A stretch of 16,124 nucleotides of DNA from NCBI GenBank assembly GCA_046292385.1, contig JBKBRF010000081.1, forward strand, positions 1 to 16,124, given 5' to 3'. Position 1 is the first letter of the stretch, and every line of letters starts with the position of its first letter. Below are positions 1 to 16,124 of the stretch, in pieces. The notes beneath the pieces are model-generated. The model saw only the letters and a list, made by a program, of their open reading frames with translations. It was not told the DNA's origin and searched no databases. The DNA is from Armatimonadota bacterium. Lineage in GTDB: Bacteria; Armatimonadota; SYMT01. Both the position numbers and the translations under genes were made by a program.

Positions 1-102
1 CGTGGGCCTGCAGGTAGCGCATCCCCGGCCTCCTTCGCGCAAGCGAGCGATGCGGCAAAACCTTCCTGCGCCACCAGCGGCGTAACTTTACAGCGTGTGA
101 CA
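1..102. mobile_element. End of a putative insertion sequence, truncated by the window edge; terminal inverted repeat at 84-102
   Basis: 84-102 AACTTTACAGCGTGTGACA is the exact reverse complement of 16022-16040. It ends in CA and is followed directly by CAAG and half of a REP-like hairpin. The + frame 2..85 is open (VGLQVAHPRPPSRKRAMRQNLPAPPAA*) and stops at the inner TIR edge, as transposase ORFs often do. No transposase motif is visible. Confidence 0.7.
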
Positions 103-121
103 CAAGCTACCGCACTCCAAA
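103..121 (+). repeat. 3' half of a REP-like palindrome (CAAG-CTACCGC-ACTCCAAA), interrupted by the IS end
   Basis: 103-119 matches 9088-9104 (CAAGCTGCCGCACTCCA) with one substitution. The ACTCCAAA tail matches the reverse complement of 9020-9027. Confidence 0.8.
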
Positions 122-187: not shown

Positions 188-1369
188 CTACGAACTGTCC
201 CAATACCCGCGCAGGGTGCCGCAGTGGCGGCAGCGGAAGGCGTAGTAGGATGCGGTCCACTCCGGCTCGACCTCATCCGGTGTCCAGAGTAAGGCCAGAT
301 CCGGGTCTGTCATCGCCAGAAAGAGACCGCGTCCGTCTCCGTCCGCCGCCTGCTCCCGGAAGTCCGCCGCGATCCACTCGCCGAGGTAGACCATGAAATC
401 GTCGCAGTGGCACAGCCAGACGCTGCCCTGCCAACTGGACCAGGTTGGCGTGCGGCGAAGCTCGACTATCGCTTCGGGCGGGATGCCGGACTTCGGAGTA
501 GACGTCGAAGGGAGTGCATCGAGGATGAAGCCAAACGCGTCGACCGGATAGACCGGGGCACTCTCTCCATCCCGCAATTCATCGTGCAGCCCATCTTCGT
601 CCACGAGTCCCGCCTCGGTGTCGTGCCAGAACTCGAAACGCCCCTCCCGCAGGCAGGCATAACAGCCCACGGAGTTCTCTCGACGATCCTCGGGAATCTC
701 CGAGCAGCTCGCCGAATCCAGGACAAAGCAGTCGCCGACCCGGCCACACAGATCGCAGCGCCGCGGCCCGTCCTCTATCCAGTCGTCCATCTCTTCCGGA
801 CTGGCCTGGAAGTAGACAAACGCCATCGGTTCCCCGCCTGCTGTTCGTTGGCCCGGTGAGGCTTGCGGATCTGGTGCCAACCGCGGAGGGGGCGAGGCCG
901 CGCTGGCGTGCTCTGCAGACGGGAGCCCGACCCGGTCGGACGGAGGCGGCAGAGCAAGGGGCTGATATGCAAGCAGCTCGTCGACGATCTGCTCCGGCAA
1001 CTCCGCATATCGCTGTCGCAAGATCGCCACTGCGTCGGGATTGTGGGATCGGGCAGCGATCTCGGCAAGCGCCGTGGCGATCTTCTTTGGCCGGTCTTGC
1101 CAGGTCATGAACTGGCGGACCAAATCCACTAACTCGGCGTGGAGTGCGCCCCCTTGCTCTTGAGACGTCGACGGCGGCAGAAGCTCGCTCAAGACTTGCT
1201 CCGGAAACCTCCCGTAGTGCCGATCGATGACCTCACCCACCGCGTGGTGCGCCACGGCAAACCTGATCTCAAACAACAGGCTATCGGCCCTGCGCTGGCT
1301 CTTGGGGTGCGCGATGAATTCGCGCACCAGGTCAATTAGTCTTTGCCGTGTGAGCTCCGTGTCTGCCAT
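188..1369 (-). CDS. CbrC/UPF0167-family protein with two N-terminal immunity-protein-like repeats (393 aa from ATG 1369; alternative internal ATG at 826)
   Basis: The C-terminal 212 aa show CbrC-like motifs: CDLCG, CYAC, ELRRTPTWSSWQGSVWLCHCDDFMVYLGEW and YAFRCRHCG...YWD. The N-terminus has an ungapped 69-aa duplication ending PEQIVDELLAYQPLAL. The ORF extension to 1654 crosses terminator hairpins and was discounted. Confidence 0.75.
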   Translation of the reverse strand: MADTELTRQRLIDLVREFIAHPKSQRRADSLLFEIRFAVAHHAVGEVIDRHYGRFPEQVLSELLPPSTSQEQGGALHAELVDLVRQFMTWQDRPKKIATALAEIAARSHNPDAVAILRQRYAELPEQIVDELLAYQPLALPPPSDRVGLPSAEHASAASPPPRLAPDPQASPGQRTAGGEPMAFVYFQASPEEMDDWIEDGPRRCDLCGRVGDCFVLDSASCSEIPEDRRENSVGCYACLREGRFEFWHDTEAGLVDEDGLHDELRDGESAPVYPVDAFGFILDALPSTSTPKSGIPPEAIVELRRTPTWSSWQGSVWLCHCDDFMVYLGEWIAADFREQAADGDGRGLFLAMTDPDLALLWTPDEVEPEWTASYYAFRCRHCGTLRGYWDSS

Positions 1370-1613
1370 GGGCGTGCCGGGGTAGAGCTGCCTCTTGGAG
1401 AGGGCGGGGTGCGGCCAGGGGGTAGAACGCTCTGGCGTGGTGCCGCTTCGAGGGTGAGAACTTCCTCCAGCGCTCCAGAAGGCTGTCGCGAAGATAGCGT
1501 CCCTTTCAGGCGGAGCGCCGATCGTTCCTGCATCGATGAAGCAAGCGCAGGTCCGCCACCCCAGAGCGGCGGGATGGCGGCTGCTACGCGCCGTCTCTGG
1601 GGCAGTCCTGCCC

Positions 1614-1660
1614 AAAGAGAAAGGGCTGTGCGCGAATGGCGAACCATCGCACACAGCCCT
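1614..1660 (-). terminator. Intrinsic terminator downstream of the tricorn-like gene
   Basis: The minus strand reads AGGGCTGTGTGCGATGG-TTCG-CCATTCGCGCACAGCCC followed by TTTCTCTTT, about 40 nt after the stop at 1697. Confidence 0.7.
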
Positions 1661-8970: not shown

Positions 8971-9021
8971 CGTGCAGCGATCCGCTGAGCGGTGCTCGAG
9001 AGAGGCGTTCGGAGCAGTCTT

Positions 9022-9104
9022 TGGAGTGCGAGAGCTTGCTCTCGCTTTCGGCTGCCGGGCTAAGACTCGGAGGTCGGAAAGCGGCAGCAAGCTGCCGCAC
9101 TCCA
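9022..9104. repeat. Inverted doublet of REP-like palindromes (REPIN/BIME-like)
   Basis: TGGAGT-GCGAGAGC-TT-GCTCTCGC-TTTC (9022-9049) and GAAA-GCGGCAGC-AA-GCTGCCGC-ACTCCA (9077-9104). Each has a perfect 8-bp stem, and the two are inverted relative to each other. Confidence 0.85.
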
Positions 9105-9249
9105 CAGGCCGGAGCCGAGGGGTGGTCCATCGCGTGCGAAAGGGCCGGCCGTGACGGATCAGCCCCGGAGGGGCGGCGGATCTCCCCGCCCGCGGAACAT
9201 CGTTAGTGGAAGAGATCGGTCCGGAATGGCGGACAGGGAGAAGCGACCC

Positions 9250-10701
9250 GTGAATTGCAATCGGTTTATCCCCGTGCAGAGCCGGCGAGACCTGCTGAAG
9301 GTCTCCGCCAACGGCTTCGGCCTGATGGCCCTGGCGGCGCTCTTCCAGGACGAGGCCCGCGCGGCCCAGAAGGCGGCGGCGAAGGCGGGCGCGCGGCCCG
9401 CGGCGGCCCCGGTGACGCCTCTCAGCCCCAAGCAGCCCCACTTCAAGCCGAAGGCGAAGCGGATCATCTTCCTCTTCATGCACGGCGGGCCGTCGCAGGT
9501 CGACACCTTCGATCCCAAGCCGCTCCTCACCCGGGACAGCGGCAAGCCGTATCCCGGCCAGAAGCCGCGCGTGCAGTTCGCCCAGACCGGCAACCTGCTC
9601 AAGTCGCCGTGGGAGTTCAAGCAGTACGGGCAGAGCGGCATCCCGGTGAGCGACCTCTTCCCGCACACCGGCTCCTGCGTGGACGACCTCTGCGTGCTGC
9701 GCTCCATCCACGCCGATAACTCCGCCCACGGCGGCGCGCTGCTGCAGCTCCACACCGGGTCCGACACCTTCGTCCGGCCCAGCATCGGCTCCTGGGTCAC
9801 CTACGGCCTCGGCTCCGAGAACCAGAACCTGCCCGGCTTCGTCACCATCTGCCCCACCCTGGGCCACGGCGGCGTGCAGAACTGGAGCTCCGCCTTCCTA
9901 CCGGCCGACTTCCAGGGCACCCCCATCGGCAACGCCAGCGTGAAGGCGAAGGAAGCGCAGTTCAAGTACATCCGGAACCCGGAGACCACCGCCGACCTCC
10001 AGCGGGTGCAGTTGGAGATGCTGGAGCGGATGAACCGCCGTCACCTGGAGAGCATGGGGCCGGACCCGCAGCTCGAGGGGCGCATCAACTCGTTCGAGCT
10101 GGCGTTCCGCATGCAGAGCGCCGCGCCGGAGCTGATGGACATCTCCGACGAGTCGCCGGAGACGCTGAAGCTCTACGGCATCGGCGAGGAGCCGACCGAC
10201 AACTTCGGCCGCCAGTGCCTCCTCGCGCGCCGGTTCGCGGAGCGGGACGTCCGCTTCATCCAGTGCACCCACAGCTACAAGTGGGACCAGCACGGCGACC
10301 TCCGCAACGGCCACAGCCAGAACGCGAAGGAAGTCGACAAGCCGATCGCGGGTCTCCTGAAGGACCTGAAGGCGCGCGGCCTGCTGGACGATACCCTCGT
10401 CTGGTGGGGCGGCGAGTTCGGCCGCACCCCGACCGCGCAGGGGAACGACGGGCGCGACCACAACCCGCACGCCTTCAGCATGTGGCTGGCCGGCGGCGGC
10501 GTGAAGGGCGGCATGACCTACGGCGCCACCGACGACTACGGCTACTACGCGGTCGACAACAAGGTGCACATGCACGACCTGCACGCCACGATCCTGCACC
10601 TGCTCGGCCTGGACCACGAGCGGCTCACCTACCGCTACGCCGGCCGCGACTTCCGCCTCACCGACGTGCACGGCCACGTGGTGAAGGAGATCATCGGGTA
10701 G
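9250..10701 (+). CDS. DUF1501 domain-containing protein with a Tat-like leader, 483 aa
   Basis: GTG 9250 follows GGGAG; SRRDLL twin-arginine motif; KRIIFLFMHGGPSQVDTFDPKP, NFGRQCLLARR, WDQHG, GLLDDTLVWWGGEFGRTP, GRDHNP and HDLHATILHLLG. It is the usual partner of DUF1549/DUF1553 genes. The exact start is uncertain (ATG 9226 is possible). Confidence 0.93.
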   Translation: MNCNRFIPVQSRRDLLKVSANGFGLMALAALFQDEARAAQKAAAKAGARPAAAPVTPLSPKQPHFKPKAKRIIFLFMHGGPSQVDTFDPKPLLTRDSGKPYPGQKPRVQFAQTGNLLKSPWEFKQYGQSGIPVSDLFPHTGSCVDDLCVLRSIHADNSAHGGALLQLHTGSDTFVRPSIGSWVTYGLGSENQNLPGFVTICPTLGHGGVQNWSSAFLPADFQGTPIGNASVKAKEAQFKYIRNPETTADLQRVQLEMLERMNRRHLESMGPDPQLEGRINSFELAFRMQSAAPELMDISDESPETLKLYGIGEEPTDNFGRQCLLARRFAERDVRFIQCTHSYKWDQHGDLRNGHSQNAKEVDKPIAGLLKDLKARGLLDDTLVWWGGEFGRTPTAQGNDGRDHNPHAFSMWLAGGGVKGGMTYGATDDYGYYAVDNKVHMHDLHATILHLLGLDHERLTYRYAGRDFRLTDVHGHVVKEIIG

Positions 10702-14104: not shown

Positions 14105-14698
14105 TCACTCGGTGGCGAACGACTCCAGGCCGGCGGGGAGCTCCACCCAGCGGTCTTCCCGGAAGACGGCGCCGTGGCTCGCCGGATCGAAGCCCTCCGG
14201 CCAGACCGTGAGCTCGTCGTAGAGCGCGGAGGTGAGCGCGGCGCCGTCCAGTGCGGCGCCGCGCAGGTCCGCCCCGAAGAGCGCGGTATTCCGGAGATCG
14301 GCGCCGCGCAGGTCGGCGCCGCGCAGGTCCGCGCGCCGGGCGAAGGAGAACTGGAGCCGCGCGTCTCGCAGGCTGGCGCCGCGCAGGTTGCTCTCGGTGA
14401 GGTCGGCCGCCGCGAGGTTCGCCCCCGCGGCGGCGGCGGAGGTCAGGACGGCCCGCCGCAGGTCCGCGCCGGCGAGGACAGCGCCCTCCAGGCGGGCGCC
14501 GCGGAGGTCGACTCCCGAAAGCCCGCGCTGCCGGAGGTTCTGCCCGGTCAGCCGGGCGCCGGCCAGACTGCCGCCGCGCAGCAGGGCATACTGGACGCTG
14601 CACTGCCGGAGCGCCGCATCCGCCCCGGCAAGCGCGAGCCCGAGCGCGAGCACGACCGCCACTCTCCTGACCTGCATCCGGCTCCGTTTCATCGGCAT
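14105..14698 (-). CDS. Pentapeptide repeat protein with an N-terminal hydrophobic segment, about 197 aa
   Basis: About 20 A(D/N)LxG-type pentapeptides (LRGARLEGAVLAGADLRRA...ADLRGADLRGADLRN) and a typical YDELTVWPEGFDP tail. The start could be 14698, 14692 or 14677. Confidence 0.88.
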   Translation of the reverse strand: MPMKRSRMQVRRVAVVLALGLALAGADAALRQCSVQYALLRGGSLAGARLTGQNLRQRGLSGVDLRGARLEGAVLAGADLRRAVLTSAAAAGANLAAADLTESNLRGASLRDARLQFSFARRADLRGADLRGADLRNTALFGADLRGAALDGAALTSALYDELTVWPEGFDPASHGAVFREDRWVELPAGLESFATE

Positions 14699-14853
14699 CC
14701 CATTCCTAGAAGAGTCTGAAATGGTGTTCGGCGCCGGGCGGACGCTCCCTCCCAGGCGAGCCGCATCGGGAGCTGCTTCGCTCGCGGCGGGTAGGAGTGC
14801 CGCCTCGAAACCGCGAACTCCCCTGCGGCCGATCCGGCCGCCAGGAGCCCGCC

Positions 14854-15801
14854 ATGTCCTCTCTCGAGCAGATCTATTCCCGCATTCGCCCCGGCCGCCT
14901 GATCCACGGCATCGCCGCCGCGCTCCTCCCGTTCCGGGAGGACGGCCGCATCGCGGAAGACGACTTCGCGCGCCACCTCCAGGCAACCCACGCCGCCGGT
15001 CTCACCAACGCGGTGAACATGGACACCGGCTACGCCAACCTGCTCTCGGACGAGGAGAAGGAGCGGGTGCTCCGCGTCACGCGCGAGGCGCTGGGGCCGG
15101 AGGTCGACTTCGTCGCCGGCGCCTTCGTAGAGGGGCGCGAGGGGGAGGTGGCGGCGCTCTACCGCCGCGAGATCGACCGCATCCACGCCTTCGGAGGCAC
15201 CCCGATCCTCTTCCAGACGAGCCGGGTTCACGGCAGGTCGCCGTCCGAGAAGGTGGCGCTCTACCGAGAAGTCTGCCGCGGGCAGGGGCGCGTGCTCGGC
15301 TTCGAGCTGGGGAAGATGTTCGCTCCGAACGGGGAGATCTGGGACGAGGAGACGTTCCGCGGCATGCTGGAGATCCCGGAGCTGGTCGGCGCCAAGCACT
15401 CCTCGCTCAGCAAAGTGGAGGAGCTGAAGCGCCTGGAGCTGCGCGATCGCCTCCGCCCGGAGTTCCGCGTCTACACCGGCAACGACCTCGGGATCGACAT
15501 GATCGAGTACGGCAGCGACTACCTCCTCGGGCTCGCCACCTTCTGCCCGGAGAAGTTCGCGGAGCGGGACCGCCTCTGGGCCGCGGGCGATCCCGCCTAC
15601 CTGGAGCTGGCGGAGGCGCTGCAGTACCTGGGGAACGTCGCCTTCCGGAGCCCCGTGCCGGCGTACAAGCACTCCGCCGCCCACTTCCTCCACCTGCAGG
15701 GCCGCCTCGCCACCGCCCGCACGCACCCCCGGAGCCCGGAGCGCCCGCCGTGGGAGCCGGAGATCCTGCGGAGCTGTTTGGAGCGGCTGGCGTTGGGATA
15801 G
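14854..15801 (+). CDS. Dihydrodipicolinate synthase family (class I aldolase-like) protein with non-canonical active-site motifs, 315 aa
   Basis: AGGAG RBS before ATG 14854; AALLPFREDGRI, LLSDEEKERVL, GAKHSS (Schiff-base Lys position), VYTGND and YGSDYLLGL. Confidence 0.85.
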   Translation: MSSLEQIYSRIRPGRLIHGIAAALLPFREDGRIAEDDFARHLQATHAAGLTNAVNMDTGYANLLSDEEKERVLRVTREALGPEVDFVAGAFVEGREGEVAALYRREIDRIHAFGGTPILFQTSRVHGRSPSEKVALYREVCRGQGRVLGFELGKMFAPNGEIWDEETFRGMLEIPELVGAKHSSLSKVEELKRLELRDRLRPEFRVYTGNDLGIDMIEYGSDYLLGLATFCPEKFAERDRLWAAGDPAYLELAEALQYLGNVAFRSPVPAYKHSAAHFLHLQGRLATARTHPRSPERPPWEPEILRSCLERLALG

Positions 15802-16006
15802 CGTGTTCCGGGCGTTGGGTACCGCTCCGCCGTGGTATGACCCCGGGGCATTGTCTCCCGCTCCCGTTCCAGGAGCCCCGGTATCTCACCGAGGGTCGAC
15901 CCCGAGCCCTTGTCTCCGGCGCCAGCCCTGGCGACATACTGTAGACGAAATCAGCGGGGCAGGAGGATCACCGGCTGCGAGCACTCCGGCGAGATTCCCC
16001 TGACGG

Positions 16007-16021
16007 GGAAGCGGTGGCAAG
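16007..16021 (+). repeat. 5' half of a REP-like palindrome (GGAA-GCGGTGG-CAAG), interrupted by the IS end
   Basis: Parallels 9077-9091 (GAAAGCGGCAGCAAG) and ends at CAAG immediately before the TIR. Confidence 0.7.
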
Positions 16022-16124
16022 TGTCACACGCTGTAAAGTTGGTGCGCCCCGGGGCGCAGAGTATGTTTTGCCGGCTGCAGGGCGGGTACTCGCTTTACAG
16101 CCGGAATCAGGGCCGGAGGTCCGC
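16022..16124 (+). mobile_element. Start of a putative insertion sequence, truncated by the window edge; TIR at 16022-16040
   Basis: TGTCACACGCTGTAAAGTT is the reverse complement of 84-102. Subterminal motifs GGCGCAG, GTTTTGCCG and CTCGCTT are shared with the other end. GGAGG at 16115-16119 suggests a start codon just beyond the window. Confidence 0.7.

Follow-up and report, generated by a model that had tools for sequence, protein, structure and literature searches.

A recently amplified insertion sequence specific to the four-nucleotide loop of a REP hairpin family, probably of an IS481-like lineage

IS1397 and ISKpn1, two insertion sequences of the IS3 family from enterobacteria, insert in the loop of REP palindromes and duplicate 3-4 bp of the target as they do so. 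The transposase of IS3-family elements is encoded in two parts, orfA with a Transposase_8 helix-turn-helix (HTH) and orfB with an rve core, which are joined by a -1 frameshift. DDE/rve transposases as a group carry out a staggered strand transfer on the two strands of the target, and the duplication on either side of the inserted element arises when the resulting gaps are repaired.

A survey of REP-targeting insertion sequences published in 2006 ascribes the REP specificity of IS1397 and ISKpn1 to the transposase and places REP-specific elements in the IS3, IS110, IS4, IS256 and IS5 families; the name IS481 does not occur in it (PMC1525189). In the same source, IS621, ISPpu9, ISPpu10 and ISPa11 of the IS110 family have every copy in a REP (7/7, 7/7 and 6/6 in its Table 2), and the REP targeters of this family are DEDD recombinases, mostly without terminal inverted repeats (TIRs). 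The target of IS110-type elements is selected by a guide RNA, according to the excerpts of two further reports used here (PMC11208160, PMC11187229). For the IS481 family, the excerpted text of PMC10045372 gives TGT..ACA termini, target duplications of 2-15 bp, mostly 6 bp, and kinship with IS3 and IS1202. A comparison with the literature by title and abstract brought up no paper on the topic of IS481 and REPs together, and the REP passage of PMC11708052, the part of that paper considered, is unrelated to REP targeting by IS481.

The locus described here adds an element to this group. In the account that we consider quite likely to be correct, it is a recently amplified insertion sequence (hereafter the IS) that is specific to the 4-nt loop of a REP family and is probably IS481-like.

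The window and its two IS ends

The window, a stretch of 16,124 nucleotides, is the whole of contig C81 in the 7.04-Mb, 91-contig assembly G000. Since it is an entire contig, its two ends belong to two different copies of the IS, and between them lie 15.9 kb of ordinary chromosomal genes. The features of the window that bear on the IS are the following:

1-102, minus strand: A end, the outer 102 bases of an IS copy on the side where the putative transposase gene starts, recognised by identity to other A ends
84-102, minus strand: 19-bp TIR of the A end, matching 16022-16040 in inverted orientation
103-106, plus strand: CAAG, the REP loop, as one of the two copies made by the 4-bp target duplication
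107-121, plus strand: right arm of the interrupted REP, with the CTACCGC stem (107-113) followed by ACTCCAAA (114-121)
188-1654, minus strand: UPF0167 gene
9023-9045, minus strand: intact REP variant with stem GCGAGAG, inverted relative to the next REP
9077-9104, plus strand: intact, unoccupied REP, GCGGCAG-CAAG-CTGCCGC-ACTCCA
15944-16017, plus strand: left part of a composite repeat module, with the REP left arm GCGGTGG at its 3' end (16011-16017)
16018-16021, plus strand: CAAG, the loop and target-duplication copy of the second insertion
16022-16124, plus strand: B end, the outer 103 bases of the second IS copy, with its TIR at 16022-16040

Besides the UPF0167 gene, the window encodes a tricorn-like protease, a PSCyt/DUF1549/DUF1553 protein, a DUF1501 protein, a TPR protein, a DUF2310 protein, an aspartyl protease and a 3-keto-disaccharide hydrolase. 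The REPs of the window are intergenic, and both insertions lie immediately 3' of gene ends. The right arm at 107-121, which matches intact paralogues elsewhere (for example ..GCGGTAGCAAGCTACCGCACTCCA.. in contigs C1 and C2), is 67 bases downstream of the UPF0167 gene stop, and the module part at 15944-16017 begins directly past the stop of the ORF at 14232-15944. The two intact REPs lie between the DUF1553 gene and the DUF1501 gene, where they form an inverted doublet. Of 22 sequencing runs from 9 studies, mostly soil, root and hot-spring metagenomes, 20 shared part of the window and 3 at least half of its words.

A perfect 19-bp inverted repeat at 84-102 and 16022-16040, reported in the preliminary description, was confirmed, with tips that read TGT...ACA. 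The tip has two matches in the window, and a search of 200 dinucleotide shuffles that tolerated up to 3 mismatches turned up none. In the assembly as a whole the exact 19-mer occurs 59 times, and 57 of these tips point outward within 125 nt of a contig end, so that they account for 57 of the 182 contig ends. The 59 tips comprise 26 A ends, 27 B ends and 6 tips with variant interiors. All 26 A ends are 100% identical over their overlaps, as are all 27 B ends, and the identity of these 53 ends points to a recent burst. At most 120 nt of the A end and 119 nt of the B end are known; because these do not overlap, the IS must be longer than 239 bp. It is present in at least 27 copies with identical ends, and its interior is absent from the assembly.

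Two other interpretations of the window were tried and rejected. The first, a circular 16-kb molecule carrying a 205-bp MITE, conflicts with the occurrence of the same ends at 57 contig ends and with A and B ends that do not overlap. The second, a composite transposon, fails on the flanking copies, which are direct and lie each in its own REP, and on the ordinary chromosomal nature of the genes between them.

The A end has the layout of the start of a gene. Read on the minus strand from the tip at 102, it holds a Shine-Dalgarno-like GAAGGAGG at 36-29 and an ATG at 22-20, 81 nt from the tip, which begins an ORF (MRYLQAH..) that stays open to the contig edge. The 13 residues of its N-terminus that can be read are MRYLQAHDPLRRE...

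Insertion at the loop of a REP family

The preliminary description had proposed a site-specific IS at the loop of one palindrome family, from a left junction with CAAG-CTACCGC after the tip and a right junction with GCGGTGG-CAAG before it. Both junctions read as described. When the flanks of all copies were tabulated, 59 of 59 tips were found to abut half a REP, either ..AAGCGGNNN-CAAG leading up to the tip or CAAG-NNNCCGCACTCCA leading away from it, and site specificity for the REP loop is borne out by these flanks. The ends are neither single-copy nor set among random sequence. In outward notation, the flanks are ..AAGCGGNNN-CAAG for a left arm and ..TGGAGTGCGGNNN-CTTG for a right arm, with a minority of CGAG or CTCG loops, and at each of the 59 junctions the insertion point is at the stem/loop boundary, with the CAAG or CGAG loop beside the IS. 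The IS is thus real, recently expanded and specific to the REP loop.

An intact REP has just one 4-nt loop, which means that insertion duplicates it. The contigs break at the IS copies, which leaves the IS ends unpaired, and the two copies of the loop were therefore paired on complete MITEs (see below), where the 4-bp target duplication anticipated earlier is seen directly. It had also been suggested that the duplication might instead be AA, with a TIR of 20 bp in place of 19 bp. The loop in this genome always starts with C and ends with G, which is compatible with that reading, but the bases adjacent to the tips of a metagenomic relative, L017, are A and A, and for this reason it is not favoured.

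Relative to the REP, the IS is found in both orientations, with 18 B-left and 16 A-right ends as against 10 A-left and 9 B-right ends. The loop itself has its canonical orientation at 55 of the 59 junctions.

At the 4 other junctions (C27:94681, C47:51628, C86:120 and C76:119) the loop is the reverse complement of the canonical one, a form seen in 0 of the 70 intact hairpins of the census. Conversion from one end to the other, inversion in place and a target of hairpin type are all possibilities for these flipped loops.

The target family has the form AAGCGGNNN-C(A/G)AG-NNNCCGC-ACTCCA, with a 7-bp stem and a 4-nt loop. The uninterrupted palindrome that had been pointed out at 9077-9104 is indeed there, with its 7-bp stem and CAAG loop, and it folds with -10.1 kcal/mol (z -3.9). 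Over 9018-9107 the inverted doublet, whose stems are GCGAGAG and GCGGCAG, folds as a single long REPIN-like hairpin (-29.5 kcal/mol, z -5.6). In the genome, the 57 intact REPs with a perfect stem have 45 CAAG loops, 11 CGAG loops and 1 TGAG loop. A census by right-arm signature counted 68 intact REPs and 31 that carry an IS or MITE end, an occupancy of about 31%.

Two REP-associated tyrosine transposases (RAYTs) are encoded in the genome (93.5 and 96.2 bits with the NCBIfam model NF047646, whose cut-off is 80), and the REPs beside both genes belong to the family that the IS targets:

C83, about 9530-10400 (locus L046): RAYT gene between two same-strand REPs of the GCGGTGG type
C40, about 62170-62790 (locus L045): RAYT gene with a REP directly upstream

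The target is a bona fide REP, that is, an extragenic, palindromic, multi-copy sequence associated with RAYTs.

REPs of the GCGGTGG type belong to a larger conserved unit, a composite module about 160 bp long, which has additional hairpins on both sides and is strongly favoured by the IS as a landing site. Intact modules are found, for example, on C6 near 73906 and on C48 near 3420, and the right end of the window is part of the same module. GCGGTGG stems make up 50 of the 59 occupied ends as against 18 of the 57 intact perfect REPs (Fisher p 6e-9, counted by ends). Most of the occupied sites with this stem lie inside the composite module, and the bias could come in part from history instead of enzyme preference. 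The remaining 9 flanks have other, covarying stems (TAG, GAG, CAG, GAA) that are matched by intact paralogues.

The genome also contains non-autonomous MITE derivatives of the IS, older and 342-357 bp long, which again sit in REPs and are more diverged than the IS copies:

C56:17904-18252: complete MITE, duplication CAAG/CGAG
C59:24198-24546: complete MITE, duplication CTTG/CTTG
C22:49182-49538: complete MITE, duplication CAAG/CAAG
C78:4580-4930: MITE derivative
C6, C43, C74, C80, C20, C30, C41 and C63: variant MITE ends

The three complete copies on C56, C59 and C22 combine the TIRs of the IS with a target duplication, small size and no transposase ORF. In four older copies the duplications are too decayed to read, and one variant is repeated enough to break contigs. 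Inside the MITEs, a GTCATCCTGAACG..AGTGAAGGATC motif is present as two inverted copies, and the motif recurs at the start of contig C91. The similarity of the MITEs to the IS ceases about 40 nt from the tip, so that they have neither the Shine-Dalgarno-like motif nor the ATG of the A end.

Relatives of the IS and their transposases

A scan of metagenome contigs with the tip gave one true relative, L017 (Ga0182024_10453190), besides 5 unrelated low-GC loci; DNA scans of genome contigs and of viral contigs gave 6 unrelated single matches and none, respectively. L017 is an element of 1478 bp with a 36-bp TIR. Its first 19 bases are identical to the tip of the IS at 18 of 19 positions, and in both elements a GCGCAGGAA box follows some 32 nt inward of the tip; past about 40 nt, the ends of L017 and the IS gave no alignment. 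The flanks of L017 read GTCAGGCT-GGAA on one side and AGAA-AGCCTGAC on the other, an 8-bp stem with a 4-nt hairpin loop, and its 4-bp duplication is imperfect (GGAA/AGAA, one mismatch).

The transposase of L017 has HTH_28/HTH_23 domains and a DDE core with the invariant D, DNG and E-R columns, and its two halves match the NCBIfam IS481 model collinearly (E 3e-10 and 7e-9; 40 and 35.6 bits). Unsplit relatives of about 400 aa (P0240, P0278 and P0304) score 100-117 bits with this model, far ahead of IS630, ISNCY, IS3 (28-33 bits) and IS21, and show Pfam HTH_28/HTH_23/HTH_32 domains plus an rve match that spans the full length of the rve domain. The cut-off of the IS481 model (NF033577) is 224 bits, and on these scores the relatives are best regarded as a divergent IS481-like clade. 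At 50% identity and E <= 1e-30 this clade has 308 representatives.

Protein searches in particular groups of genomes gave few members of the clade. Among 351 cyanobacteria a member was present in 1 genome, G463, and in a search of 121 genomes directed at relatives of G463, G463 was the only one with a member. Searches of 301 genomes of the same phylum as the host of the IS gave weak matches of about 30% identity and no close clade member, and 401 Pseudomonadota gave none. Among plasmids, the best match was a decayed, ORF2-only remnant in Spirosoma, and annotated IS481 members had about 24% identity.

The G463 member is 1395 bp long, with a 27-bp TIR and a tip that agrees with that of the IS at 12 of 19 positions. 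In one complete copy, a CAATG duplication of 5 bp falls exactly on the dyad of GGGCATGGCA-A-TGCCATGCCC, a palindrome that is part of a repeated module, and two more ends, at contig breaks, adjoin the same repeated palindrome. One further copy, L036, has the duplication AGCTT at a site that is not palindromic. The flanks at the two contig breaks (loci L037 and L040) would give CAATG/CATTG if they belonged to one copy.

In many of the relatives the transposase is split into ORF1, with the HTH and the first catalytic D, and ORF2, with the second D and the E, in frames 0 and +1 (proteins P0001-P0221). The two ORFs overlap at a T3C7 run in L017 (L017:139-1345) or at T4C5 in the G463 element (L035, G463:C4). 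Of the best 120 ORF2 clusters, 119 consist of ORF2 alone. The exception, P0117, is a longer protein of 401 aa but not an intact fusion, its middle being out of frame and the second catalytic D skipped. Of 57 ORF1s, 52 end at most 52 residues after the T/C-run site, and a +1 fusion of ORF1 with ORF2 matches the unsplit relatives across the junction. The conserved split points to programmed +1 frameshifting or transcriptional slippage.

The N-terminus of the A-end ORF offers a further point of contact with the clade. A motif P-[LIV]-R-x-[QE] is found near the N-terminus in 61 of 101 ORF1 hits, with the P 7 residues after the Met in 59 of the 61, and the A-end MRYLQAHDPLRRE contains the same motif one residue later than usual. 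No N-terminus like that of the A end occurs among the 101 ORF1 hits or among the best 150 of the 308 strong representatives, and the peptide was not found in a collection of 5.8 billion protein clusters. Within the assembly, tblastn with the two halves of the L017 transposase found nothing; profile HMMs built from 66 ORF1 and 112 ORF2 homologues and run against the six-frame translation gave weak HTH-type matches (best E 1.6e-4), and with the ORF2 profile nothing. A DNA search of 40 related genomes gave none but one chance-level match of 30 nt.

With no homologue in the assembly and no match to the N-terminal peptide, the family assignment rests on the relatives. Judged from their domains and scores, the transposase of the IS is probably a DDE (HTH-rve) enzyme of this divergent IS481-like clade. 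The suspicion, raised from the ends of the element, that they were of IS481 type agrees with the termini and the duplication, and an IS481-like identity is likely.

Mechanism, alternatives and known systems

How might a transposase come to bracket a hairpin loop so precisely? The staggered target cut, symmetric about the dyad, encloses the loop exactly and leaves CAAG on both sides. A transpososome with dyad symmetry probably recognises either the palindrome's two arms or an extruded hairpin; such two-fold symmetry would explain both the insertion in either orientation and the dyad-centred insertions of the relatives. Extragenic REPs would serve as safe landing sites where gene disruption is avoided, and this in turn would account for the occupation of about one third of the REP sites.

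Three other explanations have to be weighed. The 27 identical copies could themselves be a non-autonomous MITE of more than 239 bp, mobilised in trans by an enzyme that is absent or unassembled. No transposase was found in the assembly, MITE derivatives with the same ends are present in the genome, and just 120 and 119 nt are known at the two ends, all of which would suit this explanation. Against it, the A end has a Shine-Dalgarno-like motif, an ATG and an open frame that the MITEs do not have, the A and B ends do not overlap, and the identity of 53 ends suggests a very recent burst that needs an active enzyme. We regard it as improbable.

An IS3-family element of the IS1397/ISKpn1 type would have the TG..CA ends, the 4-bp duplication and the loop insertion seen here, and REP targeters of the IS3 family are documented in the 2006 survey (PMC1525189). 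The tip, however, is identical to that of L017 at 18 of 19 positions, the transposases of the L017 clade score 100-117 bits with IS481 against 28-33 bits with IS3, and the 13 N-terminal residues resemble the motif of that clade, so that membership in IS3 appears even less probable than a MITE. Finally, the idea that the REP arms belong to the mobile unit, as long composite ends or through spread of the IS along with the 160-bp module, and that the specificity is illusory could draw on the 50 of 59 flanks with the same GCGGTGG-type arm in a conserved module, but it is very unlikely given an IS in both orientations against an asymmetric module, the absence of the IS from 18 intact REPs with a GCGGTGG stem and from about 50 others, 9 flanks whose covarying stems recur in intact paralogues, and relatives elsewhere that sit in unrelated palindromes.

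The reading of a REP-loop-specific, probably IS481-like element can be carried further, though here we are more tentative. It is conceivable, with the odds somewhat against, that the IS is the first in situ sighting of a large IS481-like clade that has yet to be described and that is marked by two unusual traits. One would be integration at the dyad of host palindromic repeats with duplication of exactly the hairpin loop, with the REP loops here, the cyanobacterial palindromic repeat and the hairpin on the metagenome contig as its instances. The other, confined to one sub-lineage, would be production of the transposase only after a conserved +1 change of frame at a T3-4 C5-7 run in the catalytic core. 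On such a reading the flipped loops could have been left behind when the element integrated into a hairpin or cruciform target, or by conversion across one.

Natural examples of a DDE transposase that chooses a small structured DNA site are few, and REP targeting is one of them. The present genome provides an unusually clean data set for it, with 59 junctions that all share a single phosphodiester position in the hairpin, cover both orientations and reveal a measurable preference among stems. Together with relatives that hit unrelated palindromes at the dyad, these junctions suggest a rule of a symmetric cut that brackets the loop. They also illustrate that an IS can reach a high copy number, with about one third of a REP family occupied, without visible gene damage. 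On the practical side, the IS accounts for about 30% of the contig breaks in this metagenome-assembled genome.

Compared with described elements, the IS shares TG..CA ends and insertion in REPs with IS1397 and ISKpn1. It differs from them in host phylum and REP sequence, in a nearest relative with a visible transposase that is IS481-like and not IS3, and in a far higher copy number (at least 27, with about 31% of REP sites occupied). Its closest relatives also depart from the IS3 plan, with HTH_28/HTH_23 in place of Transposase_8 and a +1 instead of a -1 frame relation. The perfect 19-bp TIRs and the 4-bp duplication show that it is not of the IS110/IS1111 type. With IS481 it has in common TGT..ACA termini with TIRs, a duplication of 4 bp that is within the range of 2-15 bp though not the modal length, and relatives with HTH and rve domains whose best NCBIfam match is IS481, below the 224-bit cut-off; unlike IS481, many of these relatives depend on a +1 shift of frame within the catalytic core. 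The likeness is closest to the clade of L017 and the G463 element, with which the IS shares tip bases (18/19 and 12/19), the GCGCAGGAA box (L017), insertion at the centre of a palindrome and a duplication of 4-5 bp, but the first 13 residues of its ORF are not close to any clade member retrieved. REP targeting is a known behaviour, and the IS probably brings it to a family for which it had so far gone unrecorded and to a lineage of transposases with which it had not been associated.
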